Positions 14,994 to 50,403 of a DNA stretch of 51,342 bases are shown piece after piece. Every line of letters begins with the position of its first letter. Positions within the stretch are counted from its first letter, which is position 1. Source of the stretch: Prorocentrum cordatum (Eukaryota); contig CAUYUJ010000037.1 of the NCBI GenBank assembly GCA_963575745.1, positions 620,001 to 671,342 on the forward strand. The letters are read 5' to 3'. The position numbers were made by a program, and so were the translations under genes. The notes below the pieces were generated by a model. That model did not search any database. It was not told the DNA's origin and saw only the letters and a program-made list of their open reading frames with translations.

Positions 14994-15695
14994 TGTGTGT
15001 ATCTATATAGCATGCAGTTGTACGCAGTCTGCGATCTTGACGCATGCGCTCATGACCTGCATGCTGAAGCTGTCACAGCTGATGTTCTCGCTCAAGAGAT
15101 AGAAGGAGGTACATTGAGAGAGAGGAAGAGAAAGGTGAGGAATATACATATATATATATAGAGAGAGAATGATATATAAAGAGAGAGAGAGAGAGACACA
15201 CACACGCACACGCACACAGACACACACAAACACAAACACACACGCACACACACACACACACGCACATTGAGACCGTAGACAGCACGGAATTCCAGAGTCG
15301 CCTCTGCAGATCGGGCGGTTCAGCGGATATCCACGCAAAGTAGGCCAACAAGCCGACACCAGTCTGCCCGTAGTTTTGCCTGTGACGCTGCGCGCCACCG
15401 GGACGTCTTGAGCCTGTATGTTCTCCTCCCCCCGCTCCTGCGCGGGGGGGGAGATGTTGCCGCACCGCCTGCGGTTGAACGGCTCGCCCAGAGGTCAGGC
15501 GATCGCAAACATTGATTAAGGGGGGCGTGGATTAGCGACGGGTCCCGTTTCCATGGGAAATCGCTTGTTTCCGCCGCCGAGCGAGGCGGCACCGGCCGCA
15601 TTTTGGGCAGGGTACCTCCCCCGATCCATGGATGTGGCGACCGCGCGCCAAATCCATGGATCGCCAATCCACGTTTGCGCGCCCCCGACCGGAGG

Positions 15696-15779
15696 ATGGA
15701 AGGGATGTTCGAGTGCAACATCTGCCTGGAGGAGGCCGCGAAGCCGATGGTTACGCGCTGTGGGCACCTCTTCTGCTGG
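15696..15779 (+). CDS. RING-HC E3 ubiquitin ligase (RNF5/RNF185/RMA1-like), exon A
   Basis: Encodes MEGMFECNICLEEAAKPMVTRCGHLFCW and ends at the GC donor TGG|GCGCCT. The true start of the gene is uncertain. Confidence 0.8.
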
Positions 15780-16419
15780 GCGCCTCCCGGGGGTGTGGAG
15801 CGCCAGCTGATGAGAGCCGGTCGCCTCTCGACTCCCAGCGCTGCTCATTCAGGTGCTTGTTCTCCTCCTGGTCTTGTATCTTCCCTGGCTCCTGCTTATG
15901 ATCCTGCTTATTCCCCGTGTTATCATGATTTTTCTCCTTATCATACAGGTGCTTGTTCTTCTGCTTACTCTCCTTATTCTCCGATTGGCTCTTCGCCCCG
16001 AACCCGAATTCACAGTGTAGTCTTGTCTCTCCGCTCTGTCGCTCTCGCCCCGAGCCCGCCCGCCCCGTCACGCTCCTTCCTCGCAGCCCGCTCCCTCCTC
16101 CTGCTCCTCCGCGCATGCGGCTGACAGTGATAGCACACGAGGTTTTGTCAGTGCCAGCCAGAGGTCAGGCAAGCCCAGGACCAGGATGAATCGCTCCAGA
16201 GCGCTCCAGAACACTCTCAGAGCGCTTCGGAACGCCCTGAAACGGCCGCGGGGCCCGATACATCCTCCAGAGCCGCCAGATCTCAGGGATCCCCGATTTA
16301 TCCCGATCCAAGTTTGTCTCGACCCTGGCTTCGTCTTGGGAGGAGGAGCACGGCGAGCTGGAAGGGCGCGCCACAGCGCACAGACGCTCGCCCTGCGGGT
16401 GGGGGGGGGTGCGGTGCAG

Positions 16420-25680: not shown

Positions 25681-26863
25681 CGTTCTGTGTTACTTGCTCT
25701 TGGCGCAGATGCCTCATCACGAATTAGAGCGAGGAGGGCCGCGGTTGGAGAGCTCTCGAATGCGATTACGCACCTGACCTCCTGATCGTGTACAATGGCT
25801 TGCATGCCTTCCCAGGGGACACGTGACGCGCCATCATAGAGACGAATGCATTGAGCCTTCCTACGGTGCATCACCGCAGCGACGGCATTGAATGGGCACG
25901 AGTCCCTCTTCGGACCACCCCTCGGTGCCAGAGAATGACGTATGAAGGCAGTCATTGACACTTCGATGGCAAAATGCACTGCCCAGGAGATCGCTGCGTA
26001 GGGGACCGTAAGGCGGGGTTGGACATTTTAGTCAATCCTATCGTGGTTTGGAATGGACAGGCGATCGGGAAAGCAGCATGGCGCACTGGTGGAACTTTGC
26101 CCGCGCCGCGCGCAACCTGAAATTCACCGGCGTGGCGGCGCAAAGCGCCGCGCAATGATGCGCCTGCACTCTTGAACGCAAGGCCCGACGATCTACTGGC
26201 GGTCATGCGCAAGTCAACTACCCCGCACGCCGTCTCGACCGATTCCCGCTGCAAGCTCAAACTGACGGGGGGGGGGGGGGGGCGCGCGCCAAATTGCATT
26301 TCACATAATGTCGCATACGCACATGCAAATTAAGATATTGACTGGCTTTACACAGTACTTTGCCCCGTTCTTTATTTGCGGGGCGGGGAAGAGCTATATA
26401 TTTCAGAATGTTTTACGCCGCGCCGCTTTGGGAAGGGCCAATCCGCCTTCATCAAATTACACCAGCAATCAAACTGCATTCCGATGTCTTCGCATGATTT
26501 GGCAAAAAACGAACGTTATCTTGCAAACGACCCGTGGGCAAGCAAGTCGCGCGCCCAATCGGTGCGAATCAGAATATATACATATATACATATATATATA
26601 TACAGCACCTCGCAGAGACGCTGGTCGGACTGCAACGAGTAAGGGCTCGGCTTGAAACCAAGTCCCCGGGCTCATTTTCCTGAACTGCTGCTGGTTGATG
26701 TCATCGTTGTCAGATTGACACTCGGCTGCAATCACAATGGCCACGATGCCGATCACCTACTCCTGGCCCAGCGGTCTGAATTGAGCAGCATCCGCGCACG
26801 CACTATTCACACCGCCAAGTATCCGGGGCACGGCTTTCCAAAGTTCTAGACGTTTCGCGTATC

Positions 26864-29800
26864 CCCACGGTTCTCTCAAAGCTTGCCAACGACCTGGGTC
26901 TCTGTGTCAGCATGTTTGACAGGATGTTTCACGCCCTCCGCGGCCAAGACACGGCGGTGGTCCACCTGTCGATTTGCTACCGCATGCATCCGCAGCTCCT
27001 CGCCTTTACGAACGCAGCCTACTACGGCAAGGGTATGGCGAGCGGCATCTTGAACCCGCTCAGAGACAGGCCCATAGTTGAAGGCATCCCATGGAGAGAC
27101 ATCTCACCCTGGGAACCTAGGCGCCCGACGGAACTCGCCAAGCTCACCAGTTCCAACGAGGCCGACCTCAGCGCGACCCTTGGGCAGTTGGATCCTCCGC
27201 AGAACGGCGACAGGCACCGCTTCCCTCTTGTCGACACACCCTCGTGGGAGGTTACGTCCGGCCTCCAGCCAGGCTACGCCAACCTCCCCGAGGCAGCGCA
27301 GGCTGTGGACATGGCGCGGGCACTCCTCCCCGAGCTTGAAAGAGGCACCACCGTCCGAATCGTCGTTGGCTACCAGCTCCAAACGGCCATCCCAATGGAC
27401 GGCTGGCCACAAGGCCCGCGCCACCTCAGCGGCGCCCTGCGAAACTCGAAGAGTGGCAACAAAGGGAAATCCGGCAAGGGAAAAGGCAGTGGCGGCCATA
27501 GCGGGCGAGATATCCCCGGCCCTGGAACAGACTCCCGAGAGCACGAGGTCGACACTCACCGCTGGGAAACCGTCTTTCGGGAGGGTCGTAACGCCCACGC
27601 AGCTATCGGCACAGCCTTCCCTGGTCTCAGACAGAGTGCAGGCAAGCACATGAAAAGTGGGGCCCTCAAGCTCACTACCATCGACTCCAGCCAGGGCGGG
27701 GAGGCAGACATCGTGATTGTGCTGACCACCAGGAGCAACGGGATGCACAACTGGGGCTTTGTCGATGACGCCAAGCGGCTGAACGTGGCGAACACGAGGG
27801 CCAAGCGGAACATCATGATGTTGGGAGACGGGCGCATGTTCGCCAACGCCACTTGGTCCCAGCTACGTGCGCTTTCCGAATGCGGGCGCTTGGCCCGCCG
27901 ATGGGCCAGGTTCGGGGGCGACGGACCCGCCGGCCACAGGCAATCCCTGGTCATAGACGATAGGTTTGACCCACTGCCCGACCTCGCCACCTGGGCGCCC
28001 TCCCCCGTTGCCTGGAGTTGCGACGCGAAGGGAGAGGATGGGCGCAAGGAGCTCGATGCGGCCAAGAGAAAAGCCCGTGGCGCTCAGGCGAACAGCTTCG
28101 CCGATCGCTTCAACGCCCCACTGGCCGATGACTTCGACTGGGACTCCCTGGGCAAGTTCATCTCTGACGGCCTAAACGAGATCCTCTCGACGCCTGCCTT
28201 CCATGTGCTCATCTACCTGGTGGCGGGGCTCCACCCGCGTGAATTCTCGCTGTCCGAGACACCGCGGCAGCCTGGCAGACTCGACCAGAAGGCGTGGTCG
28301 CACCTGGGCTTCCTGTTCGACATGTCCCTGGGTTTAGACGCGACCAATCTGGTCTACAACATGCTCTGGGCAGCCATAGTGTGGTCACTCGGCCTTGGCA
28401 CTCCCTGGGAGGACGCAGGCCACGCAGTGTGCAACGACTCCCTCCCCCCGGCGCCGCACGTCAGGGGCCGACGTGCAACGGCGGGCGGCGACAGTGCACT
28501 CCCAAGGGACTTGTCCGACAGGTTCCCCAGGCGTGGAGTGCAACAACCAAGGACTGCTGCAGGCACAGGAAGCACCCTGGGATGGTTGGCCTGCAGGAGA
28601 TCTTAGGTAGTGCTTCCGTCGATCCAACCAGGGGCCGACTCCGGGAGGAGATCAAGGACACAGACGGCCTCCCCATGGAGTCTTGCAAGACCCGCTCGCT
28701 CCTGGTGGTCATGATGTTAATGCTCCGCGAGCCGCGCGTGTTCTTGTGGCCGTTCCCACACGCCGAACAGGCTGGGGACGTGATTGCAGCCATCCTGGGT
28801 TTCTGTGTCCCGTGGCAGGAAGCGCATCGAGGGTTCCGGCAGGACTTCGCGAGCACCTAGGGCCTCACGCTGGAGGACCTGGCCGATCTCCACGGGCGCA
28901 TCGAGGCAATCCTGCCACACATCTCCAAGCTCGTAGCGGTGGCACACCACCACCCCGACGCACAGGCAGCTGGCTGCCCGCAGACCTGGAGTGAGTTGGA
29001 CAGGCATGACTTCCAGCTGAAGGCCCCGCTGCTCGTCCTCGAGAAGATCGTCCCAGCCGCCTCACTGACCCCCCTGGGCACGCACCACTGCCCCCTGTGC
29101 GCGCTTCACATCGCGCTCGCGGGCTCAGACGCCTCCCTGGGTGACGACGACCGGGGTGCTGGGCTCGCCTACATCGGCGGCGGATTCGCCCTTTCCAACA
29201 CCGATCTGAACGCCCCCATGCCGCCCGCCCCCGCCCCAGGTACCAAGCAGGACCCCCCGCACATCCTCGACGACAGGCTGTTGGCTGAGCAGAAGCATGG
29301 CAGGTTCAAGTGCGACAGATGCGGCAAGGATCAGCTACGCTCCACAGACGGTACATGGATCTCGGACGATACTCGCCTGATGGTAGCGCAGAACCGGCCC
29401 CAGGCCTACCTCGACGGTACAAACATGGGATGGCACTGCGAGATCTGCTGGATTCGACACCTGGAGGACAAGGGCATCCCAGCACCAACCGGTGCAACAG
29501 TCGCGGATAAGGTCAAGGAGTACGAACACTGGAGGACCGGTGGCGCAAGTGACAAGAAGGCGAGTGCCCTCCCCTCCCTGGGTCATCTCCCACTTGGCTT
29601 TGGATGCAGCCCCCAATCGGACACGAGGACACTGGCGGATCTCATCATGACGCCGGCGGGCATGCACAACCCAAAGCGCGCCAACACCACTATTCCCATC
29701 CTACGGGTCAGGGATGAGCGATTCGGCCTTAAAGCTGCAGAGAACAAGGTCTACTCTGCTCGGTGCGACACATGCCCCCCAGGGGCACCGCTCCTAGTCT

Positions 29801-31878
29801 GGAAAACCGGAGCACCTCCCCTGGGATGCTTCATATGGAAGCCAAAGGAAGGAGTGGGTGTGCCCGAGCAAGCAGGGCTGCCTCCCATTGAGCGGCGAGC
29901 CATAGCCTGGTGGGAGCGCGACTGGAATGCCACGTGGTGCTGCCGGCGGCGCCTGGTCCCCATCTGGAACATCGGGCCCGCGACTCTGGACCACATCATT
30001 GGGAGAGACTACAGGGCACTGCACCCAGCCGAGGCCCCTGTCCTGCCGACGCTCAAAAGCCGGGTCGCAGCGGAGGCCCCGGTGGACATACTCCGCACCC
30101 TTCCCTGGATGGGCGCCGACGCCAAGGCCGCAGATCGCTTCGCCAAGACAGGAGCGGCAAACCTCCCTGGGTCCAGCGCCTTGGGAACAGCCGCCCCCGT
30201 GGCCGAGCAGGCCCCCAGGACTCTCCCGCAACTCATGGAGCTCCTGCCGGAGCTGCCAGTCCCCCAGGGGCCGCTCCTGGACTGCAGGGAGGTCACCAAC
30301 CCCACGCTCAGGTCAGACGACCCCAGGAGTAGGTCTGGCAGCGGAAACGTGGTCGTTCAGCAGCTTCTCGTGACCCACCTCCGGGACTTCCACCCTGGAC
30401 TGGACTACCTTTGGCGGCAGTTCTGCCACGGCCATTGCGATGATAACATCCCAGAGCCTAAAAACGAATAAGCCTCGTGGCCAGGCGGTCGGTTGACGAT
30501 TTTTCTCAGGGCGGCGTACGGCGACGACATCCCGGGGGATTGCTCCCCGCGCAACCAGCCCTGGGAAGGCAAGCGGCTGGCCGCCGCGCGAGTCGTCTCC
30601 CACCTCACCAACGGCGAGAAACACAAAGAGGCCTGGGAGCGGCACGTCTCGACCCTCGCCCCGGCGAGTGGCTTCAACCCAGTCAGACACGAGATGGGCA
30701 CGCTGACGAGCTTCCTGCTCAGCCTCAGTGCCGATGCCCTGGCCACGACAACCATCACCTCCCTGGCGGAGTCGCATGTGCAGGCCATGAGCGAGAACAG
30801 GCCCGGCAACGAGGCAGGGCGCCCTCCGACACAGTGGCTGGGCAAGCCCAAAGTTCCAGCAAGAACCGTGGGCGACACCTCCACAGCGGTTGGTGCAGAC
30901 TACTCCCTGGGTTCGAAAGACGCCGGGATGCGCGCTGGAGACCCGAAGGTGCCTGGCCCAGCTGCCAAAGAGGAGGACGACGAAGATGAAATTCCTGCCA
31001 CTGAGCGAGCGGATTCAGCCGACTTTGGAAGCCCCCAAGAGGCTCCTCCCCCTGATGACTGTCCGGACACGGACACGGGTGCGGAAGATGATGGCCCTGG
31101 CGCCAAGCCGCCACAGCAAAGCCCAACGGCAGAGAGCATGGAACCCAGCTCCGACGACGACCCTTTGAACGCCTGGGGTGGTGCAGCCACCACTGAGCAG
31201 AACGCCAGTGGTTCCAGGGGGCCAGGTCGAGACGAAGCCGCGCGAGACAGAGGCGCAGCACAGGACCACCGCCCCGCACTACGCAATCCGCAAGCACCAG
31301 ACCGCAGGCTGGCCTACTCTGGCGCCACGGAACGACGCGTTCTCAACCAGCTGACCGACGCCCACGGAGGCCCCATGTACAAGGCTTGGTTGGGCTCCGT
31401 GGACTTGGAGCGCCGCGGAGAGACGCCCGCCAAGTGCATCACCAGACACCAAGTTGACTTGGGTGGAGTATTCTGTGTCCTTTGGACTGCATACACAAAA
31501 GGCATCCGGATCCCTGGGTCCAAGGATCCCAAGTCAGACCCGAAGCTGCACACGGACGCGAACATCAACAAGTTCTTGGATGACTGGAAGCATTGCGGTT
31601 ACGATGCCTACGCGATGGACAAGAAGTTTAACTTCTGCATCGACTGGGCAACGGTGCGGGCCGAATACATGCGCCACACCAGGACAGACGGCACGGGCAA
31701 GGGCAACCACCAACAGAACAGCTGGCACGACCGGGCAAGGAGCTCCTGGGACGCCTGGGACAACTGGCAGAGTGGCTGGAGCTCCGGCTGGCACGACGAC
31801 CAGTGGCAGTCAGGAGGCAAGCGTGGCGGCGGCAGGCCAGATGACCGCGGCGAGAAGAGGCAGCGGTGGGGCGACTGA
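26864..31878 (+). pseudogene. 5'-truncated, disrupted ~1,670-codon ORF: C-terminal half of an Upf1/DNA2-like SF1 helicase, Cys-rich domains and a Trp/Gly-rich tail
   Basis: Helicase motifs: PTVLSK..GLCVSMFDR, CYRMHP, YANLPEA, VGYQLQ, TIDSSQGGEADIVI and RLNVANTRAK. One frameshift falls near 28450-28590. ORFs 28294-28860, 28939-30471 and 30493-31878 share one frame, broken only by TAG at 28858 and TAA at 30469. No introns are needed. Confidence 0.85.
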
Positions 31879-31964
31879 GCCCCCTCCCCCCCCTTCCCCA
31901 AGCGTTTCATGTGCAGCGTCTGTTTTCCACACTCTGTGCAGCCTTCTGTTGCCTCATGGGTTAC

Positions 31965-32564
31965 GTTTCATATACTCGGGCGGCGGCCTGCCGCCGCCCT
32001 CCCTGGTACACGCACTTCCTGCCTTTGGACCCAAGTGTGTTTACCAGCAGTACCGTCTGCATGGCATCACGGGGGCGCGTTGCGTGCAGGCCATAGTTGG
32101 CCCCGGCCCTGCTGTAGTTGTTTTCACCTCTGGCCCTGTTGGACTTCTTCCCCCGGCCTCGCGGCTCTGTGACCGTCGCCGATGGCGTTGCCTCGTCTCA
32201 GTCCAGAACCGCACTCACCATGCTCCCTGGGTTCTCAAAGGTACTGCGGCTTCAGCTGCTCTTCAGTTTCATATACACACGTGGCGGCCTTCCGCCGCCC
32301 TCCCTGGTACACGCACTTCCTGCCTTTGGACCCAAGTGTGTTTACCAGCAATACCATCTGCATGACAGCGCTGGGGCGTGTTGCGTGCAGGCCATAGTTG
32401 GCCCTTGGCCCCGCTGTAGTTGTTTTCACCTCTGGCCCACGGGATCCGTCCGCCGGCCTCGTGGTTCTGTGACCGACGCAAAGATGGCTTCGCCTCGTCA
32501 CTGTCCAGTACCGCACTCTTGCTCCCTGGGTTTCTCCATGGACAGCGGCCTTCAGCTGCTCTTC
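31965..32564 (+). repeat. ~301-bp tandem duplication in the 3' UTR of the helicase element
   Basis: GTTTCATATAC..CCCTGGTACACGCACTTCCTGCCTTTGGACCCAAGTGTGTTTACCAGCA..TTCAGCTGCTCTTC starts at 31965 and again at 32266. Confidence 0.9.
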
Positions 32565-35381
32565 TCTGCGCTCTCCTGGGTGCGACTGTGGGCGGGTGGC
32601 TTCCCGACAGCGGGTCTTCAACGTAGACCAGACGGTGCACTTCTGGTGCCGTTGAGGTACCCCTCCGGTGACAATGACTTGGGGTGCCCACCCGTAGGAC
32701 TTTGCCGCGTTCGGACGCAGGGACCAGTTGCGCACCGACCTGCGCGCACCGGCCTCAGCGTGGCAGCGGGTGGTCAGAAGACTGATCCCACATCTGTGCA
32801 GTGGTTCGCTGTTCCTTTGCTGGCCGCCAGTTTCGGTTGCCTGGACTGGCATCATCCCACCGTCGCGCCCCCGCTCCACCCGGACGAGCGGTCTTCCCTC
32901 GGCTTCTTCGTGACCACTGACTGTTGCTTGGGCTGCAGCTGGTAAGAGGCAGCACCGCTCCTCGAGCGCCCTCGTCTACTCCACTCAGGTACGCCAGGGT
33001 ACCTTGGTTAGGCGGCTCCGGTTGTGCTGGTCACGTTAGTTGCTTCCTGGTACGCGTCCCTGTTCTAATCTGGTTGGCGTCGCTTGCGATTTGTGGCCGT
33101 TAGTGGAGTGGGACTGTTGTCCCTTCCGCATGGCGTCACATCATGTCACTTGATGGTCGCTTGCGTTCGCACCTATTCGCGGCTGTCTCCTGGGCCTGGC
33201 GTGCTTGGTTCGGTTCGACACCACGAACTCCACGCCTTTGGGCTGTGTGGGTGCGCACTCTGGAGCTGCGACGGTTCGCTGGCGCTGTCAGAGCGAACCT
33301 TTCGTACGGGATGCCGACTGACGATTGCTTTTGTGTCTTTCGGTTGGTGCTTGTGCGTGGCAGGTCCCCTGGATCCCCTCGCACTTCTTTCCCTCCGAGG
33401 TTGGGGACTTCCTCCTGTTCAGTTAGTGTCTCAGACCGCTTGGTTCTGTTGCCTCTGACACGGTGGGGGTCTTGCATCGCGCCACTTTGGCAGCGTAGTT
33501 ACTTCTCCCTGGGCGCTGGGTTCCCATCAGACTCCCTGGGCAGCAGCACCCTTGCACCTGCCGCCCGGCGCCGGCCGCGGTACGCGCGCGCCCCTGGCCA
33601 ATTTATAGCGGCCGCAGCCCGACCGTTACCCGCCGCCCGCCCGCGGCTGTATAAAAAAAGTATCCCCACCAGTCGGGCTTTAGCCGAGTTCTGCGACAGG
33701 GTGCCATGATAAGTGAGGCCGCTCTCTGTGCCGCCGTTCCTTCTCTTACTGGCGCTGTGTGCCTCGTCTGACGTCCGCTGCGTCGCCTTCGCTCCCTCCC
33801 CCCCCTCTTGCCCCCGCTTGTGATTCGGCTGGAGCTTGGCGCCGCAAGGGCGACTTCTCCCTCCGTTCCGCCTGGTCTCCGCGCCTCTGCGTCCCCACCT
33901 GCTGGGATGCCTGTGCCGGTCACCTCTAATGAGGGTAATTTTGTCCCAGGCACGTGCATTCGCCATTGCGGCTTACGCGCTTCTTTGGCAAATTATCTAC
34001 GGCATGTGCCCCAGCCGTTTATCCCGCTTCTTGACCCTTGTCTTGGAGCCGCCGACCAAAAAAGTATCCCCACCAGTTCGCTCCCGCTCCCTGGCCGTCG
34101 CCTTGGAGCCGCTAACCAAAAAAATGTATCCCCACCAGTGCTCTTGCCGCCTGACCGTCGTCTCGCGGCCGCGACCGAAAAAGTATCCCCACCAGTGCCG
34201 TTTGCAGTCAGCTCAGCCAGCCTCCCTTCAGCCCGCGGCCCCGCCGGCGGTAGGTTCTGAGTGTGGCTTAGCCGCTGCTCGTTTAGGCCTGCGCGCTGCT
34301 AGTTTGACAGGCCCGTGGCCCGGACCTCTCAGCTCGGCGACTGCGACTCCGCGTCCGCCCGCGACCAAAAAAGTATCCCCACCAGCCCATTCAGAAACGA
34401 TGTTTAGGCGAGTTGAGAGGTGATCAGGGAAGTGCGGGAGCAAAGAGGTGGACGGCCGAACCGCGTGAAGAAGAGAGGGGGCGAAGGAGAAAATTTGATG
34501 GATGGATGAGGGAGTAGGGCGAAGGAGGATGAATAGGATGAGGAGGAGGAGGAGGAGGAGGAGGAGGAGGAGGAGGAGGAGGAGGAGGAGGAGGAGGAGG
34601 AGGAGGAGGAGGAGGAGGGGGAGGAGGAGGGAGGAGGAGGAGGAGGAGGAGGAGGAGGAGGAGGGGGAGGAGGAGGATGAGAAGGGATAGGAGGAGGAAC
34701 GAGGAGGAAGAAAGCAAGCAAAAGGGCCAGAGTTCTCTTGGATGTTTCTCGGAGCCTCTCGGGGTATCTCTTGGCCGTCTTGGGGCTCCCTTGGCGGTCG
34801 TGGGGGGCTCTTCGGCGTCTTGGGTGCCTCGGGGGGGCCTCTTGGGGCCGCTTGGGATCCTTTTGGGGGCCTCCTGGGGGCCTTTTGGGGGCCTCTTGGG
34901 GCCATCTTGGGACCTCGACGACGACGACCGACGCCGAGGCCCCTTGAGATCCTCGAGGCCAGAATTTCCGCATGTGTTTTCGCTTTCCCAGGCCAATATC
35001 CAAAACAATAAATCACACAATTAAGTTTGAGTAACGAAATAAGTCCCGTAAGTTCCATATGTTCATATTGGTGATAAGAGCCGCATGTCATTATTCAACA
35101 TATCGCTACTATGATGTAAGGTTTTCGATTTGCCCATCGATTTTATGAGTTGAAAGGGGTGGGCGGTATCATGTTGACATTTGATATTGCAAGCACACTG
35201 TGCACATACAACTCAACTTGAGGATTGCTCAAGTCCCTATGATGTTGCTGATGCCCAGCTTCTCTGGGCAACCCTCTCAGGAGGGACCTCCCCGGCGATC
35301 GGCCGGACGGGGGACACCGGTGAGACAGCGTCGAAGCGCCAGGAGGGATGATGCGGGGCCGAAAGAGCTTGGGCGATCCAG

Positions 35382-35546: not shown

Positions 35547-36725
35547 CTCTCTCACACACAGACATTGTGCACACACAGGCAAATTCTGACACACGTTTGC
35601 ACTCGAAGGGTTTCTCGTCGCGCATCTTGGTTGCCTCATTCATCCTGCCGATGAGCCACCCTACAACCAACATATACACATAACGGGGGACCGGGTCCTG
35701 GGGGCCCAGGCCGAGAGCTCGACCACAAATGTGTGGACTGGGCTGCCTGGAGCCTTGCCGGCGCGCCAGAGGCCCTCTGAGATCGCCCGCCCGAAGACGG
35801 CCCTGGATTGCCTGAAAACACGGTTCGAGACCGCCAGAACGGCCCATGACGGCTCCAGATTGTTGAGAATTGGCCATCGCCTGTCCAAGAGGTCTCCAAG
35901 GCACCCCAAGAGGCCTCCACGAAGCTTCCCAAGAGGTAAAGGTTTAGACGGATTTGGGTTTTCTTGTTTTTTGTCGGTTTCCCAAAGCTCCAAGGCGGCC
36001 CGAGACGCCTCCAAGGACGCCCCAATATTGCCCAAGAGGCTCCCAAGAGAGCCCCAGGACGCTCCGAGAGAGTTCCACGACGGCCCCGAGAGGGCTCCAA
36101 GACGGCCCAAGAGGCCTCCAAGACGGCCCAAGAGACCCCCGAGACTACTCCAGAGAGGGTCCAGACGGGAGCGGACATCTTGAGCCCTCGGCCTCGAGCG
36201 GCCCCACGGAAGCCCAGAGAGGCCCCTAAGAAACCCCAAGAGGCCCGAAGAGGCTTCCAAGAGGCCCCCAACCCCCAAGAGGGCCGAAGAGGCCTCCAAG
36301 AGGCCCCCACCAGGCCTCCAGGAGGCCCCCACGAGGCCTCCACGAGGCCCCAAAGAGCCAAATTCATTCATATGTCAAAAGTTTTGGAGGATTTGGGCGT
36401 TCTCGCCTGTGCGGCTTTCCGACGTTCCGAGGCGGCCCAAGAGGCTTCCAAGATCGCCCCACCATTGCCCAAGAGGCCCCCAAGAGCGCCCCAGCTCACC
36501 TCAAGAGTTCTCCAAGGCGGCCGCAGAGGCCCGCAAGACGGCAGTCCCAGAGACCTCCAGGACGTCCCGATAGACCTCGACGAGCGCTCCCCAGACGGGA
36601 CCAAGAGCTAAAATGAATTGATATTCCTGACGCTTTTGAACGACGCCCCCAGGCGACCCGAGAGAACTCCAAGACGCTCAAAGAAGCCTCCATGAGGCCT
36701 CTCAAGAGGGCCCAAAGAGGCAAAA

Positions 36726-36744
36726 GTCATTGTTCTGGCTCAAG
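36726..36744 (+). other. Degenerate dinoflagellate spliced-leader relic
   Basis: GTCATTGTTCTGGCTCAAG resembles the 3' part of DinoSL (GCCATTTTGGCTCAAG). It sits at the boundary between repeat and unique DNA, about 115 bp upstream of the ATG of an intronless gene. Confidence 0.55.
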
Positions 36745-36858
36745 CAAGGCTGCCTCCAAGCTCTTGTGGCCTCTTGCATCCGAGCCCGCACTGCGGGCTC
36801 GGATGCACGAAGCTGCGGGCCCCGCAGCGAACCCGTCAGCTCCGGCCGACCGGACCCC

Positions 36859-38430
36859 ATGCTGCGCAGCCCAGCGATGCAGCTGGCCGCCAAGGGCAAG
36901 AGAGACGGGGAAAGCTCACGCCCGGTGGGCCGTTCCAGCAGATTGGGCAGCTTGGGGTCGCATCCGTCACCTAGCCGCAGGGCTTGCTCCAAGACGCGGC
37001 TGTCGATGCTGGCTGCAGATGCCAGCGGCGTGAGCCTGGCTGGAGGCGGACAGCGCCACTGCATCATGCGTGGTGCTGTCGCCGACCCTTTAAAGGCTGT
37101 GCCAGACGCCCAAGGGTGCGCGACCCCCAGCACAGCGGCTGGCTCACCCGCGTCCTCTCGTTCGGGCTCGATGCCTGCGAGCAGCCGCCCAGTCTCGAGG
37201 CTGCCTGAAGCAGGGAGCTGCGGAGCGCCAGTGGCGGTGGTCGACATGATCCGCTCCAGGCGTGGTGGTCGCAGGCCCCCGTCTGGGGCGCCAGCGCGCG
37301 AGGCACCGGAGCTTGCGCGGAGCGGTGCGGGCAGCGGCCCCGCTTCCTGGGGATCGTCGCGCACCGCGGGCTCGGCGGCGGCGGCGGTGCAGAGCCACTG
37401 CAGGGACGTCAGGGAAGTCTGCCGCCTTGCCAAGACCCTGCAGCTGCCGGTGGCAGAGGTTGAGCGGGCATGCGCCCTCTTCCGGGACCATGCTCAACCC
37501 CTCGCCCCGGGTGCCGAGATGCTCAGAGACGGGCGCCTTGGCCACGAGCAGTTTGCCAGGCTCGTGCGGAGCCACCTGACTCGTGACAGCGGCGGGGTGG
37601 CGGAGTGGTCCATTAACAGGGTAATGCATGCCCTCAAGAGCGTGCGCGAATCCGATGGTGTCAACCAGAATCTTTGCCTGAGCTTCGAAGAGTTTGTTGT
37701 GTGCATGCACATCCTGTCTCTCGATCGTGCGGCGGAGGCGAAAGAGGCGGAGCGGAGCCACGGCAGGGACGTCGCGGAGGTTTGCCGCCTTGCCAAGACC
37801 ATGCAGTTGCTGGTGGCAGAGGCGCGGCGGCTGTACACCCTCTTCGGGGACTACGCCGAGCCCCTCGCCCCAGGGGCCAGGATGGTCAGGGACGGGCGCC
37901 TTACCCAGGAGCAGTTTGCCAGGCTCGTGCGGAGCCAGCTTACGTGGGACAGCGCCGTCTCAGCAGAGCAGCACGTTGAGAGCATAATGTCTTCAGTCAG
38001 GAAGGTGTGTGAGGCCGCTGGTGTCAAGCGGGGTCGCGGTCTGAGCTTCCATGAGTTTTTGGAGTGCACGCGCATCCTGTCTTTCGACGGTTGCATCCTA
38101 TCTGGGGAGGAGCGCGGACTGCGCAGGATGGCCCAGAAGTACGACCTAGGATTCGTCGAGATCGACAGGTACAAGAAGGTGTTTGACGAGCTAGACGCAG
38201 AACGCAGCGGCAGAATTGGCCGCCAGGCATTGGATAGCTTTTTCAACAAGTTTGGCATCTTCGCGGAGGACATACGCCACGCCGACACGCGCAAACACGA
38301 CATTTGGCTCCTAGCGGATCCAGACCTCAAGGGTAGCATCGACTTTGAAGCGTTCCTGATCTTCAACTTGAAGTACGTTAGCCGAGGAGCCGAAGGCCTC
38401 TATCAGTACTTTGGGGCATGCGCGGCCTGA
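36859..38430 (+). CDS. Intronless EF-hand calcium-binding protein (523 aa from the first ATG) with an internal 121-aa duplication
   Basis: EF-hand-like loops FDELDAERSGRIGRQAL and ADPDLKGSIDFEAFL. The block RDVxEVCRLAKTxQLxVAE..DGRLxxEQFARLVRS occurs twice, at about 37391 and 37754. Confidence 0.8.
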   Translation: MLRSPAMQLAAKGKRDGESSRPVGRSSRLGSLGSHPSPSRRACSKTRLSMLAADASGVSLAGGGQRHCIMRGAVADPLKAVPDAQGCATPSTAAGSPASSRSGSMPASSRPVSRLPEAGSCGAPVAVVDMIRSRRGGRRPPSGAPAREAPELARSGAGSGPASWGSSRTAGSAAAAVQSHCRDVREVCRLAKTLQLPVAEVERACALFRDHAQPLAPGAEMLRDGRLGHEQFARLVRSHLTRDSGGVAEWSINRVMHALKSVRESDGVNQNLCLSFEEFVVCMHILSLDRAAEAKEAERSHGRDVAEVCRLAKTMQLLVAEARRLYTLFGDYAEPLAPGARMVRDGRLTQEQFARLVRSQLTWDSAVSAEQHVESIMSSVRKVCEAAGVKRGRGLSFHEFLECTRILSFDGCILSGEERGLRRMAQKYDLGFVEIDRYKKVFDELDAERSGRIGRQALDSFFNKFGIFAEDIRHADTRKHDIWLLADPDLKGSIDFEAFLIFNLKYVSRGAEGLYQYFGACAA

Positions 38431-45002: not shown

Positions 45003-45887
45003 ACATATACATAATAATAACAATAATAATAATCATAATAGTCATAATAATAAGAATAATAATAATAAGAAGAAGAAGAATACTAATAATAATAAGAAGA
45101 ATAATAATAATGATAATAATAATAATAATAATGATAATAATAATAATAATAATAATAACGGCGCACCGGGTCCGGGGGCCCGGGGCCGCGACCACGACCA
45201 CAAATGTGTGTGCCCAGGCTCTTGGGGCGCCCCTGAGGCCCTCAAAACGCCCAAGGAACGCGCCAAGAGAACCCGAAGACGCCCCAAGACGGACCCAAGA
45301 CACCCAAAGCCCGCTCCAAGATGCCCAAGATGGCCCCCAAGACACCTCCAAAAGCCTCGCAGACGCTCTAAGAAGCCCCCGAGAGGCCCCCCAGGACGTC
45401 GCCAAGAGGCAAACATAGCCCCACTCCTTTCGCAAAACGTGCATATTTGGCATATTGATTGTTTTCGCTGTCGTACCGCTCTTGACGACATCAGAGGTCT
45501 CCAAGACCGCCCCAAGACAGTCCAAGAGGCGCCACCGAGGGCCCCAAGACGGCCCAAAAGAGCCCCAGGACGGCCCAAGAGGCGCCCAAGACGGCCCAAA
45601 CGGGCCCCCAAAGGCGCCCAAGAGAAGCCCAAGATTGGGAAGTCCAACCGACAATTCGAGCTTTCCGCCAAAACAAGCGCCCGGGAGGCCCCAAGAGGCC
45701 CCGAAGAAGCCCCAAGAGGCCTCCAAGAGGCCACCCAGACGCCGCAAGAAGGCCCCACGAGGACCCCCGAGAGAGCCCTGAGAGCCCTGAGGGCCGGAAC
45801 CTCGACCACACATGTGGGCCCCGGAGTCCCGGCGGCCCCAGGCGGTCTCGAGACACCCCCAAGACGCCATCCAGGGGCCTCTGGCGA

Positions 45888-47770
45888 CGCACGATGCGTT
45901 TTAAGCTGAGGCCCCCAAGACGCCCCGAGAGGCCTTTCAGATGGCGCCCAAGAGCGCCCCGAGAGGGCAAACTCGTTGATTTCCATTGTTGTTTTTTTCA
46001 ACTGTTTTTTTTGCATTCTCGTTGTTTCGTGTTTCGGGCACTAAAGCACCACCCAAGAGGCTCCCAAAACCTCCAAGACGGCCCAAGAGGCCCCAAGAGG
46101 CCAAGAGGGCCCAAGACGGCCCAAGAGAGCCCCGAGACGGCCCCAGAGCCGCCCAAGACGGCGCAAGAGGGTCCCAAGAAGGCCCCAAGAGGGGCCCAAG
46201 AGAAGGAACGCGAACTGAAAAAACAAGCTCTTTGCCCCAAGATGCCCCCAGAGGCCCCAAGAGGCCCCAGAGGCCCCATGAGGCCCCCAAGAGGCCGCAC
46301 GATGCATTTTAAATTGCCCTGGAGGCCCCCAAGATGCCCCAAGAGGCCTTTAGGATGCCGCCCAAGAGCGCCCAGAGAGGGCAAAATCGCTGATTTCCAT
46401 CTGTTTCTTGAAATGTTGTTTCTCGCTGTCTTGTGTTTCCGGCGCTAAAGCACCGCCCAAGAGGCTCCCCAAACCGCTCCCAGACGGCCCAAGAGGCCCC
46501 CAAGAGGGCCCCAAGACGGCCCAAGAGAGCCCCGAGACGGCCCCAGAGCCGCCCAAGACGGCGCAAGAGAGTCCCAAGAAGGCCCCAAGAGGGGCCCAAG
46601 AGAGGGAACGCGAATTGAAAAATCAAGCTCTCCGCTCCAAGATGCCCCCAACAGGCCCCAAGAGGCCCCCGGGAAGCCCCCAAGAGGCCCCACGAGGCCC
46701 CCAAGAGGCCGCACGATGCGTTTTAAATTGCCCCAGAGGCCCCCAAGACGCTGCAAGAGGCCTTTGAGATGGCGCCCAAGAGCGCCCCGAGAGGGCAAAC
46801 TCGTTGATTTTCATGTTTTTTTCAATGTTTTTTGCATTCTCGCTGTTTCGTGTTTCCGGCGCTAAAGCACCACCCAAGAGGCTCCCCAAACCGCTCCCAG
46901 ACGGCCCAAGAGGCCCCCAAAAGGGCCCCAAGACGGCCCGAGAGAGCCTCGAGACGGCCCCAGAGCCGCCCAAGACGGCGCAAGAGAGTCCCAAGAAGGC
47001 CCCAAGAGGGGCCCAAGAGAGGGAACGCGAACTGAAAAATCAAGCTCTCTGCCCCAAGATGCCCCCAGAGGCCCCAAGAGGCCCCCAGAGGCCCCATGAG
47101 GCCCCCAAGAGGCCGCACGATGCGTTTTAAATTGCCCCGGAGGCCCCCAAGACGCTGCAAGAGGCCTTTGAGATGGCGCCCAAGAGCGCCCCGAGAGGGC
47201 AAACTCGTTGATTTTCATGTTTTTTCAATGTTTTTTGCATTCTCGCTGTTTCGTGTTTCCGGCGCTAAAGCACCACCCAAGAGGCTCCCCAAACCGCTCC
47301 CAGACGGCCCAAGAGGCCCCCAAAAGGGCCCCAAGACGGCCCGAGAGAGCCCCGAGACGGCCCCAGAGCCGCCCAAGACGGCGCAAGAGAGTCCCAAGAA
47401 GGCCCCAAGAGGGGCCCAAGAGAGGGAACGCGAACTGAAAAATCAAGCTCTCCGCCCCAAGATGCCTCCAAGAGGCCCCAAGAGGCCCCCGGGAAGCCCC
47501 CAAGAGGCACCAAGAGGCCCTCAAGAGGCCCCAAGAGGCCCCCAAGACGGCCCAAGAAAGCCCCGAGACGACCCCCAGAGCCGCCCAAGACGGCGTAAGA
47601 GAGTCCCAAGAAGGCCCCAAGAGGGGCCCAAGAGAGGGAACGCGAACTGAAAATCAAGCTCTCCGCCCCAAGATCCCCCCAACAGGCCCCAAGAGGCCCC
47701 CGGGAAGCCCCAAGAGGCCCCCAAGAGGCCCCCAAGAAGCCCAACTCAGGCTCCAAGAGGCCCCAAGACG
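45888..47770 (+). repeat. Tandem satellite with a ~404-414-bp unit, about 4.5 copies, CCAAGAGG-rich
   Basis: CGCACGATGCRTTTTAA occurs at 45888, 46296, 46710 and 47114. Confidence 0.9.
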
Positions 47771-48054
47771 GCACCCAAAAGGCTTCAAACTCTTTCTAAG
47801 AGGCCCTCGAAGACATGCCAAGAAGGTCCCATGACGACTTCAAGAAGCAGGTCAGGATGCTCCGAGGAGGCCCGAAGTGGCCCCCAAGAGAGCCTAAGAG
47901 GCTCCCAAGAGGCCCCCAAGCGGCCTCAAGCAGCATCCAGGAGGCCAGAAAGAGGCCCCAAGAGCCCAGCGGTCCAGGCGGGGGCCGAACGAACATTTCC
48001 AGCCCTGGGCTCCCGGAAGCCCATGAGGAAGCTCTAAGAGTTCGACCAATCAGC

Positions 48055-48100: not shown

Positions 48101-48816
48101 GTATATATATACACACACACGCATGCGTTCATGCATACATGTGTATAGATACATGCATGCATGCAACCACATGTATATATATATATATATACATTTATAT
48201 AGTGTGCCACATGCATTTGCAAAATGCATATAACCATACATTCATGCATGCATATACATGTGTAGAGTGTAGACATCTTGGCTAAATAAACACATACTTC
48301 GTTACGTACGTACTCGCAGGCGTGCATCAATGCATGCATGCATACGGACAGACATGCATCCATGCATGTATACATACATTCATACAGACACGCGGTCCAT
48401 AAGAAGCTCGTCTAGAGCGATGCAAGAAGAACACATCATTGATTGTCCACCGTTTTCGTTTACGGATTTGCAGCTTCTCGCTATTTCTGCTTCCCGACTG
48501 CTCAAGACGTCCCAACAGGTTCCCAAGACCGCCCCTGGGAGCTCCAAGAGGCTGCCACGAGGGTGCCTCCACTGCCTACGAGGGCCCAAGGACGGGTCGG
48601 GAGCCACCCAAGACGGCAGAAGGGGGCCCGAAAAGATACCCCAGGACGGGGCAAGGAGCCCCCAATATGCATCAAGACCGCGGCCCAAAATGATTTCAAG
48701 ACGCTCAAGTGGCGTCTTTCGAGGCCGAAAGATATGCAAAGTGTTCCCCGAGAGCGCCGAATGAAGGACAAACCATTGATCTGCCTTCGGCTTTTGAAGA
48801 ATTTTTGACGCTTCGC

Positions 48817-49428
48817 ATATCCCCACAAGCTTGTGCACTTGTTGCGTCGGCCTATGCGCCGTCGTAACCAATTATCTTGCCCTGTGCCCCTGCCGAGACC
48901 ATCCCGCTTCTTGGATGTGTCCTTGAAGCCGACAATAAAAAAAAGTATCCCCACCAGCGCCCCTGCGAGTGAGGCCTCCATCTGTTCCCCCCTTTCTCCT
49001 GCCGCCGCTTGCCCTTGCGCCCGCTGTGTCTCTCCTGTTCCTTGGCCTCCTCCTCGTTTCATGGACGGTGCGGCCTCAGCCACTCCGTGCCGCCACAGCG
49101 CGGCGTGCTCCACGCCCTTGCGCGCTGTTCGGTACGGTCAGAGCTTGGCGCCACTTGTGCGACTGCTCCTTCCGTCCGTTTTCAGTTTGGTGTTTGCGTT
49201 CCCCTGTTTCGGGCCGCCAGCGTCCCAATGAGGGTCATTTTGTCCCTGGCACGTGCACCCGCTGCCGCGGCCTATGCGCCCCAGCAGCTAATTATTTCGC
49301 CCTGTGCCCCAGCCAAGTCCGTCCCGCTTCTTGGATCTGTCCTTGGAGCCGCCAATCAAAAAAAGTATCCCCACCAGTTCCGCCTGACCGTCGTCTCGCG
49401 GCCGCGACCGAAAAAGTATCCCCACCAA
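48817..49428 (+). mobile_element. Array 2: three stacked A-tailed inserts separated by RTATCCCCAC(CAR) repeats
   Basis: Motif copies at 48817-48826, 48945-48957, 49365-49377 and 49416-49428. A-tracts are A8, A7 and A5. Inserts are about 118, 407 and 38 bp. Confidence 0.85.
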
Positions 49429-50403
49429 CCCATCCAGAATTGATTGCCAGTTTTCTTGGGGCCTCTTTGGAGGCTATCTTGAGCAATGCTCGGCTAGAGG
49501 CTGTCGGAGGCCATCTTGAGCCATGCTCGGCTATCTTGGGCCACCGTGAGGCTGCCTTGAGGCCTCTTGGAGGTCTGTCGGAGGCTATCTTGAGCCACGC
49601 TTGGCTATCTTAAGCCAGTTTGAAGGCCATCTTGGGCTATCTAGGGTTCTCTTGGAGCCATTTTGAGCCAAAAAGGGCGGGGTGGAGGGTCTTTGGGAAA
49701 GGCTGGGAGGCCTCTTGGGGCCATCTTGGGCCCCATGTCTCAAAAAGAGGAGGTGCCTTAATTCGGATCCCCCCCGCCGGAGGCTCTCAAACGGCGTCTT
49801 GGGGCCGTCTTGGAGCGCTCTTGGGCGCCTCTTGGGCGATCTTGGGGCCGTCTTCGGCCTTCTTGGGCCCCTCTTGGGGCCCTTTTGGGCCATCATGGTG
49901 CCATCTTGAGGCTTCCAAAGCCCATCGGAAGCGGAAAGGCGAGAATGCCAAAAACATTGATTTTCCCTTGGGTTTGGAGTGTTTTGGGATCTTGGAATTC
50001 GCCGTGGAGGGCTCGAAGGGCACTTGGATCCGTCTTGGGCTGTCTTGGGGCCTCTTGGGGGTATGTCGGAGGCTATATTGACCCATCTTGAAGTAACATG
50101 GGCCATCTTGGAGGCCATCTTGCGCCTTTGAACGCCTCTTGGAGCAATCTTGGGCCATCTTGGACGCTCTAACGCCTCGCGGCGCGCCCCGTCCAGGCCC
50201 AGGGGAGGGAACGGGGGGGAGGGGCTTCAGTGGAAGAGAAAAGAAACAAAACGCGTTATACCACCTAAGCCCAGAGGGCTGGTGGGATTTGTGCGTTTCA
50301 CTTTTCTGCTTCCCGTCCGTCCAAGACGGTCCAACAGGCTCCCAAGACCACCCCACGACTGCCCACGAGGGCCAAGAGACGGGCGACGGTCAACTCGCAT
50401 AGT

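Follow-up and report, generated by a model that had tools for sequence, protein, structure and literature searches.

Probable retrocopy of a giant Upf1-like helicase mRNA at a short, repeatedly occupied target motif of Prorocentrum cordatum

The insert and its target motif

The stretch of DNA analysed here, referred to as the window, comprises 51,342 nucleotides from the dinoflagellate Prorocentrum cordatum (contig CAUYUJ010000037.1, positions 620,001 to 671,342 of the forward strand). It contains a 6.8-kb insert that carries the 3' part of a gene for a giant Upf1-like helicase and is followed by several much shorter inserts, each of them ending in a short run of A. An earlier note on this DNA had described an intronless frame of ~1,670 codons with three lesions, followed by a long 3' untranslated region (UTR), an A7 tail and a target-site duplication. 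All of these elements were found, and the frameshift, the TAG and the TAA could be located by alignment with a full-length relative of 2,541 residues, P0001. The features of the insert are as follows.

26864-33659, plus strand: whole insert, a single colinear frame of ~1,670 codons, then the 3' UTR, A7 and the 10-bp duplication
26859-26868, plus strand: 5' copy of the target-site duplication GTATCCCCAC, its last 5 nt overlapping the first helicase codons
26864-27870, plus strand: 3' half of an Upf1/Sen1-like superfamily 1 (SF1) helicase (Pfam AAA_12; phmmer against the PDB)
26975-26995, plus strand: motif IV, CYRMHPQ (NAM7 alignment)
27440-27511, plus strand: Gly/Lys-rich low-complexity run, inside the ~109-residue extra segment between motifs IV and V
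27677-27721, plus strand: motif V, TIDSSQGGEADIVIV (NAM7 alignment)
27779-27808, plus strand: motif VI, LNVANTRAKR (NAM7 alignment)
28475-28478 (approximate), plus strand: frameshift from frame 2 to frame 1 (frame change in the P0001 alignment, both frames read)
28858-28860, plus strand: in-frame TAG, with Trp at the P0001 equivalent
29254-30060, plus strand: Cys-rich domain, with CxxC pairs at 29305, 29431, 29758 and 29935 (AlphaFold2, predicted local distance difference test (pLDDT) score 85.3)
30469-30471, plus strand: in-frame TAA (P0001 alignment)
31366-31677, plus strand: conserved C-terminal module (P0001 alignment)
31717-31875, plus strand: Trp/Gly-rich, RGG-like tail (8 Trp among the final 70 residues), then the stop TGA
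31876-31878, plus strand: true stop TGA (P0001 alignment)
31879-33652, plus strand: 3' UTR of 1,774 nt, containing a ~300-bp tandem duplication
31965-32264 and 32266-32564, plus strand: the two units, ~300 bp each, of the UTR tandem duplication
33653-33659, plus strand: A7 tail
33660-33669, plus strand: 3' copy of the target-site duplication GTATCCCCAC, the motif running on as CAGT to 33673

On the plus strand, frame 2 is open from 26780 to 28606, and frame 1 extends from 28243 to 31878 with two in-frame stops. Alignment of P0001 to the window by tblastn yields exactly two colinear pieces and no second locus, with P0001 residues 780-1368 corresponding to 26807-28528 in frame 2 (50% identity) and residues 1340-2540 to 28444-31869 in frame 1 (36% identity). 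The alignment is weak over its first 19 residues, upstream of 26864, where it seems to have been extended by chance, and becomes strong from PTVLS onwards. The frame starts at the equivalent of P0001 residue ~800 of 2,541, and the window copy comprises the last ~1,670 of ~2,500 codons, colinear with P0001 to its last residue and up to the natural stop. One frameshift and two stops are the only lesions in ~5 kb of frame. The exact 5' edge of the insert is ambiguous by 5 nt, since the letters CCCAC (26864-26868) close the duplicated motif and at the same time spell the Pro-Thr codons of the helicase. In the UTR, the number of ~300-bp units varies among other copies of the family, with contig joints that lead back by 300 nt (32564>32265), and the open reading frames (ORFs) of the UTR matched no Pfam family.

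The word GTATCCCCAC occurs exactly nine times in the window, eight times directly after A5-A8 (with a single T between in one case), and these eight are all in one orientation. When one mismatch is allowed, 11 matches are found versus 2.66 expected, a count reached by none of 100 shuffles. Eight poly(A)-tailed inserts of the same orientation lie at two loci of one motif.

26859-34385, plus strand: locus 1, the 6.8-kb insert and four inserts of ~390, 48, 43 and 176 bp
26848-26858, plus strand: left half of the target motif, AGACGTTTCGC, directly ahead of the duplicated word
33674-34063, plus strand: insert of ~390 bp, A5-A7 then GTATCCCCACCAG at 34058
34078-34125, plus strand: insert of 48 bp, A5-A7 then GTATCCCCACCAG at 34119
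34140-34182, plus strand: insert of 43 bp, A5-A7 then GTATCCCCACCAG at 34178
34197-34372, plus strand: insert of 176 bp, A5-A7 then GTATCCCCACCAG at 34367
34373-34396, plus strand: right half of the target motif and right flank, GTATCCCCACCAGCCCATTCAGAA (pattern match)
48817-49428, within the motif span 48806-49439, plus strand: locus 2, array proper, three poly(A)-tailed inserts
48827-48944, plus strand: poly(A)-tailed insert of 118 bp
48958-49364, plus strand: poly(A)-tailed insert of 407 bp
49379-49415, plus strand: poly(A)-tailed insert of 37 bp

Both loci have in common the flank AGACGYTTCGC on the left and CCARCCCATYCAGAA on the right, neither of which is found elsewhere in the window, and the homology of the flanks stops within ~35 nt on the left side and ~24 nt on the right. 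Accordingly placed patterns are equally restricted in the window, AGACGYTTCGCRTATCCCCAC being present only at 26848 and 48806 (versus 0.01 expected) and CCCCACCARCCCATYCAGAA only at 34377 and 49420. The sequence GCATCCCCAC at 42845 was considered as a target and rejected, having no A-run and no shared flanks. The target motif gave no tRNA match, and with Rfam neither the window (gathering threshold) nor 33600-34560 (E<=1) yielded a single match. A 60-bp tandem pattern is present within the stack of locus 1 (33674-34372).

At least four unrelated sequences occupy the target site. An identical 32-nt poly(A)-ended tail (CTGACC...GACCGAAAAA) is found at 34151-34182 and 49384-49415, in inserts with different 5' ends, 43 nt long in locus 1 and 37 nt long in locus 2. 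Since the same tail is combined with different start points, these two inserts represent separate events from one abundant template, which is a candidate for the 3' end of the driving element. The ~400-bp inserts at 33674-34063 and 48958-49364, as well as the insert at 48827-48944, have a conserved 3' part of ~170 nt and poorly alignable 5' halves, with 78% identity overall. Judged by their sequences, the ~400-bp inserts behave like short interspersed nuclear elements (SINEs), that is, like a family with a common tail, and neither a tRNA or Rfam match nor a relic of the spliced leader was found in them.

The 3' end of the helicase insert had been thought to resemble weakly the ends of these ~400-bp inserts, a likeness that does not rise above chance: local alignment of its last 173 nt with four insert tails gives z = -0.7 to 1.5, and 30-254 of 300 dinucleotide shuffles reach the score. 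The helicase insert therefore has no 3' tail in common with the co-inserted short elements of the kind seen in partnerships of SINEs with long interspersed nuclear elements (LINEs). The 16-nt motif that we take to be the DinoSL relic stands at the start of no insert, and its best match, a single one with three mismatches at 49662 on the minus strand, is equalled by 45 of 100 shuffles.

Contigs of four public sequencing runs (marine metagenome) were aligned to the region, the depth of contigs not being a copy number. In run X1, 2,006 contigs align at 85-100% identity (192 at >=99%, 561 at 95-99%, 790 at 90-95%, and 463 at <90%), with up to 13 different contigs across one place, and the whole unit, including its UTR, clearly exists in many sequence variants. 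The left flank (26000-26851) has nearly no contig cover (0-1.3 in X1), from which no conclusion is drawn, and no RNA run was listed among those containing parts of the sequence. Loose ends of contigs from other places read ...TTCTAGACGCTTCGC directly ahead of 34373/4, with the left flank joined straight to the right flank, and thus represent unoccupied motifs. A long poly(A) stands directly before 34367 in run X4. One contig of run X3 connects the motif with the final ~52 nt of the UTR of the insert (26868>33608), a hint of repeated copying of helicase RNA into a motif of this kind.

The helicase and its family

The first frame piece matches Pfam AAA_12 (E=4.3e-25, 88.9 bits with a cut-off of 27), the remaining two pieces match no Pfam family, and the best PDB sequences found by phmmer are yeast and human Upf1 (NAM7/UPF1, 3.6e-11), followed by Sen1, in agreement with the Upf1-like helicase named in the earlier note. 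Residues 29-105 of the query align to NAM7 387-458, and residues 296-362 to NAM7 540-607; we take the conserved stretches in this alignment to be the motifs named above. The frame begins with PTVLS at 26864, right behind motif III, and comprises the second RecA-like half with motifs IV, V, and VI. The window copy lacks the Walker A and B motifs (I and II), i.e. the first RecA-like half (AAA_11), which is present in the full-length relatives P0001 and P0013. The stretches of motifs IV and V are separated by 191 residues in the query versus 82 in NAM7, so that the insertion with a Gly/Lys-rich stretch previously put at ~95 residues is real and measures ~109. The Gly/Lys-rich run is common to the window copy and P0001.

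Kinship was ordered by profile scores against PDB chains. The family profile ranks UPF1 highest (6.6e-43), followed by Sen1 (2e-38), IGHMBP2 (5e-32), DNA2 (6e-20), and ZNFX1 (1e-12). Coronavirus nsp13 reaches 1.6e-5 over ~53 positions that cover motifs V-VI only, versus ~260 positions for UPF1, and a nidoviral affinity, proposed earlier as a point to be checked, thus falls far behind the cellular one. Outside its own family, identity of the query to other helicases is confined to 9-15% of its length, and when the helicase part was compared by words with proteins of similar length, nothing but 15 generic helicases came up, with coverage of 10-22% of the query.

P0001 itself came up in a word-based search of longer proteins, in which it matched 94% of the helicase piece at 50% identity (E=2.9e-169). 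It consists of ~600 orphan residues, the helicase, and ~1,400 further orphan residues, and all of its matches in Pfam, NCBIfam, and PHROGs lie within residues ~605-1136 and belong to helicase families. No Pfam family is matched at E<=0.1 outside residues 610-1126, hence neither the Upf1 CH nor the Sen1 N-terminal domain is present, nor are accessory domains specific to Upf1, Sen1 or ZNFX1 found at that threshold. P0013 (2,945 residues) has the same layout and is aligned with P0001 from residue 269 to 1867, and both proteins open with a conserved N-terminus. Three more full-length ORFs of 2,535-2,541 residues, located on separate contigs, cluster with P0001, to which they are 88-99.6% identical. 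In P0001 and P0013, the three family collections contain no match to a reverse transcriptase (RT), RNA-dependent RNA polymerase (RdRp), protease, integrase, transposase, nuclease, or capsid. As far as can be judged from sequence, the product of the family would be one giant Upf1-like helicase and not a recognisable polyprotein. The term polyprotein, used in the earlier note, finds no support, as neither a protease nor a second enzyme was detected in the insert (Pfam) and in the full-length relatives (Pfam, NCBIfam, and PHROGs); the same applies to an RT or RdRp, to be looked for upstream according to that note, P0001 and P0013 carrying only helicase families, although a separate upstream ORF of a longer element might still encode an RT.

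The region following the helicase, ~1,336 codons long (27870-31878), matches no Pfam family, which bears out the more than 1,300 residues unlike cellular Upf1 that had been claimed, and ~2,000 of the 2,541 residues of P0001 are orphan. A word-based comparison of the post-helicase part with proteins of similar length gave no match among 8,000 candidates. AlphaFold2, supplied with the family matches of the post-helicase part as the alignment, predicts the Cys-rich domain as a confidently modelled fold, apparently without a known match: Foldseek found none at E<=1e-3 in the PDB and BFVD (best E=0.47 in BFVD), and the best Z in VIA-align was 2.8. Weak rows of FYVE/RING-like zinc fingers over residues 8-98 in the latter comparison are no evidence of kinship, and such a relation was rejected. 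A model of 661 residues of the post-helicase part is only partly confident (pLDDT 66.8), with no match at E<=1e-3 by Foldseek in the PDB and a best Z of 3.7 in VIA-align, on a short helical part. The ESM Atlas offered no usable match for 28861-30468 (best 0.79) or for 30472-31875. An RNase III-like reading of the stretch REPRxFLWPF...GDVxEA, an idea from sequence that found no fold or profile support, was dropped. In the C-terminal tail (31717-31875, and also the last ~60 residues of P0001), Trp is placed beside Gly, Ser or Asp, together with RGG. The tail is reminiscent of Argonaute-binding 'GW' platforms such as those carried by some silencing helicases.

A profile search (HMMER) with the 1,006 residues after the first stop against 1.84 billion representatives returned 102 cluster representatives matching the post-helicase part at E<=1e-3, 54 at <=1e-10, and 8 at <=1e-30. 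The 102 matches are mostly short fragments, some of them 79-92% identical. Organism labels were examined for 20 of them. Eight of these 20 are P. cordatum proteins, on eight different contigs and with 34-91% identity to the window copy, and seven bear the EukProt label of a Pyramimonas strain, a green alga. The Pyramimonas-labelled fragments (P0011, P0016, P0017, P0019, P0021, P0022, and P0028) are 51-92% identical and may come from a data set that was mixed or wrongly labelled, or else represent a shared element. No relative was found in the JGI metagenome contigs scanned, and no relative of P0001 in IMG/VR, where a single pattern match, L001 (G+C 39%), proved spurious (P0001 versus L001, E=1.2).

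One further P. cordatum protein, P0020 (1,877 residues), has two C-terminal family modules (246-580) and a weak cytosine-5 methyltransferase (DNMT) stretch (1594-1709), the latter with 19.1 bits in Pfam, under the cut-off of 22, and 2.2e-7 in PHROGs. The translated target motif was not found in P0020, probably a gene model fused across adjacent repeats. DNMT-bearing retroelements are reported from Symbiodinium in sections of PMC5890265, and P. cordatum is described, in sections of PMC10666404, as repeat-rich and as having the highest G+C among the genomes compared. The G+C of the window, ~60%, is in keeping with a Prorocentrum-like dinoflagellate. The word 'helicase' has 0 occurrences in these two sources, as far as their text was available, and no description of a helicase-encoding repeat family or of site-specific poly(A) arrays in dinoflagellates was found in the literature, supplements not being covered.

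Origin of the insert

The insert is probably a dead-on-arrival, 5'-truncated retrocopy of a poly(A) mRNA from the many-copy giant-helicase family, pasted into a specific motif through target-primed reverse transcription in trans. An enzyme that nicks a specific sequence and works by target-primed reverse transcription leaves the traces seen here, namely a tail, a duplication with a fixed left edge, insertion in one orientation, and 5' ends truncated to varying extents. An endonuclease/RT of the LINE type, acting in trans, would nick the conserved motif ...AGACGYTTCGC|GTATCCCCACCAG..., and the nick would serve as the primer for cDNA made from the poly(A) end of an RNA. Synthesis would stop early, leaving the copy truncated at its 5' end, which would then be joined with duplication of 10-14 bp of the target, possibly guided by microhomology at the 5' junction, where CCCAC overlaps. 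Since each event would duplicate the motif, further poly(A) RNAs could stack as an array. The last 173 nt of the insert are no more similar to the other tails than shuffles are, which argues for recognition of the poly(A) end and not of a shared 3' structure. The window copy is non-functional and cannot encode a working helicase, having lost about its first 800 codons, with the ATP-binding motifs among them, and bearing three disabling lesions. Both the driving enzyme and the source copy are what we infer, the window containing no RT.

The two origins offered in the earlier note have fared differently. The tail, the duplication, the 5' truncation, and the position of the insert as one of eight tailed inserts agree with the capture of a cellular poly(A) RNA and its insertion into the array. 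The 3' part of a very large helicase-encoding retroelement finds no support in full-length relatives that carry helicase families only, and the polyprotein and the viral origin are likewise unsupported. Its description of the locus likewise stands as to structure, though not as to the resemblance of the 3' end to the ~400-bp inserts.

Several known systems share parts of this picture. Mammalian LINE-1 makes retrocopies in trans that have a poly(A) tail, a target duplication of 10-14 bp, and a truncated 5' end, and that are dead on arrival. The poly(A), the duplications of 10-14 bp, the 5' truncation, the possible CCCAC junction microhomology, and the unrelated mRNA as template are all similar here. 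Unlike LINE-1 pseudogenes, the inserts described here use one long specific motif, form stacked arrays, and have very short tails (A5-A8); the priming end of the nicked target would not be T-rich, and no LINE is seen in the window. Repeated insertion in one orientation at an exact position of a repeated target is in turn shared with site-specific non-long-terminal-repeat (non-LTR) elements, such as R1/R2 in ribosomal DNA, SLACS/CZAR/NeSL in spliced-leader genes, Utopia in U2 genes, and TRAS/SART in telomeres. Such elements mainly copy themselves, recognising their own 3' UTR, whereas here at least four unrelated sequences, none of them encoding RT, occupy a site that has no Rfam or tRNA match. 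The subtelomeric Y' elements of yeast are helicase-encoding repeats that can be mobilised by the Ty1 reverse transcriptase. By analogy, the unit described here, also several kb long, helicase-encoding and repeated, might be copied through RNA by the enzyme of another element, although helicase class and location differ and there is no sequence relation.

Among proteins, the Upf1-like SF1B helicases (UPF1, Sen1/SETX, IGHMBP2, DNA2, ZNFX1, and Aquarius) have in common with the family the AAA_11 and AAA_12 core of the full-length relatives and motifs IV-VI of the window copy. They differ from it in the ~600 orphan residues before the core, the ~1,400 after it, and the Gly/Lys-rich insert in the second RecA-like half, and also in that the family is many-copy and has no Upf1, Sen1, or ZNFX1 accessory domains. 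Orthology with Upf1 is not indicated, the N-terminal Cys/His zinc domain being absent from P0001 at E<=0.1 and the family not being single-copy. In the same host group, dinoflagellate retrogenes are recognised by relict DinoSL, a 5' spliced-leader relic, in passages of PMC6050394 and PMC5585692, and RNA-based gene copying is given there as very common, with 22-23% of Symbiodinium genes (PMC6050394). Unlike those retrogenes, the window copy is 5'-truncated, and no unit of the array starts with a DinoSL relic. The phrase 'target site' has 0 occurrences in the available part of PMC6050394, which does not mention target sites or tails.

Five points weigh against a trans-made retrocopy. No RT or endonuclease gene is present among the 120 ORFs of >=150 residues that the window contains outside the main frames, where only a RING finger and an EF-hand protein were matched, and the frames of the insert yield no RT, endonuclease, RdRp, or capsid family. 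The intronless frame fits the copy of a spliced mRNA and that of an intronless source gene alike, and the two cannot be told apart by it. The many-copy status fits a mobile family equally well. No significant likeness links the 3' end of the insert to the other inserts, so the enzyme would have to accept unrelated poly(A) RNAs. This would be unusual for sequence-specific LINEs. Finally, 1,075 differences were found among the contigs, and 37 of the 40 listed lie in the coding part; the 37 window-private coding substitutions, a biased sample, are distributed 9:11:17 over the codon positions, with 13 synonymous and 24 not, and are close to neutral.

It is possible, if rather unlikely, that the helicase family itself is a selfish retroposon, either LINE-dependent or autonomous with a polymerase in an unrecognised domain or upstream ORF, and that the window copy is a truncated element. 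The deep diversification in one genome (eight P. cordatum proteins on eight contigs, 34-91% identity), the several intact 7.6-kb ORFs at 88-99.6% identity in another data set, and the hint of a second, differently truncated copy of the helicase UTR at the same motif lean towards such an element. The contigs with full-length ORFs, 12-27 kb long, leave room for further ORFs, and most of P0001 is orphan, including a confidently folded domain without known fold. Against this stand the missing mobility enzyme, with no signal of RT, integrase, transposase, nuclease, or capsid in P0001 and P0013, and the missing shared tail, the 3' end of the insert being common to no other array member; many-copy, retroposed host genes are, moreover, common in dinoflagellates according to parts of PMC6050394. 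We can speculate, with still less confidence, that the helicase genes are a new kind of selfish, protein-coding dinoflagellate retroposon, spread by a borrowed sequence-specific LINE enzyme to which any poly(A) RNA is acceptable. If so, the helicase, the zinc-binding domains, and the Trp/Gly tail would act on RNA, within their own ribonucleoprotein or on host silencing, in favour of their own copying, and the motif arrays would be a dedicated landing pad recording the traffic of selfish retroposons.

Two other origins are much harder to reconcile with the data. An endogenous viral element, that is, the mRNA of a marine protist virus reverse-transcribed by a host LINE and written into the motif, is very unlikely. 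A long intronless ORF with an SF1 helicase, the weak Viral_helicase1 match of P0001 (E=2.9e-5, 24.4 bits with a cut-off of 21), and the parts of the insert sequence contained in marine metagenome runs speak for it, yet the profile favours cellular UPF1, Sen1, and IGHMBP2 over nsp13, P0001 and P0013 contain no RdRp, capsid, or protease families, no relative was found in IMG/VR (its sole match, L001, does not match P0001), and no BFVD structure matches the Cys-rich domain (best E=0.47). A shared virus could explain why fragments of 79-92% identity are labelled as a green alga and other fragments as dinoflagellate, but the odd label would equally follow from a culture that was mixed or wrongly labelled. 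The G+C and CpG content of the insert is similar to that of its flanks. Least credible is a conventional pseudogene processed from a host helicase gene that has introns and is present in one copy, for example Upf1, SETX, or MOV10. The tail, the duplication, and the truncation are typical of such pseudogenes, and the nearness of the helicase core to cellular Upf1/Sen1 would also point to one. This origin is already contradicted by the copy evidence, the closest matches belonging to a many-copy and diverged family and not to such a gene, while P0001 has no Upf1 CH, Sen1 N-terminal or other orthologue-specific domain at E<=0.1 and likeness to helicases outside the family covers so small a part of the query.

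For a retrocopy made in trans, the process would be of a known kind, with an unusual targeting rule, and greater interest attaches to the family from which the copy came. The genomes of dinoflagellates are very large and in large part the product of RNA-based copying, the enzymes and target rules of which are hardly known. This locus presents clean footprints of such copying, namely tail, duplication, truncation, and one fixed cut site, and the short motif together with the 32-nt tail would provide handles for finding the responsible element in the assembly. It also reveals giant Upf1-like helicases as a family that is large and diversified and has so far gone undescribed.

Other features of the window

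In each of the four runs, the summed contig depth peaks at 34236-34500, just right of the target, far above its values elsewhere. Tandem units of 10-11 bp (CCCAAGAGGCC and its complement) are very abundant, at 34770-34911, 35986-36516, 45258-47964, and 49793-49912, and a 403-bp higher-order repeat is present at 45908-47519. A long ORF at 36640-38427 on the plus strand has a C-terminal EF-hand pair and an internal 363-bp tandem repeat (37383-38087), and an ORF at 15516-16121, also on the plus strand, encodes a RING finger; both are probably host exons.

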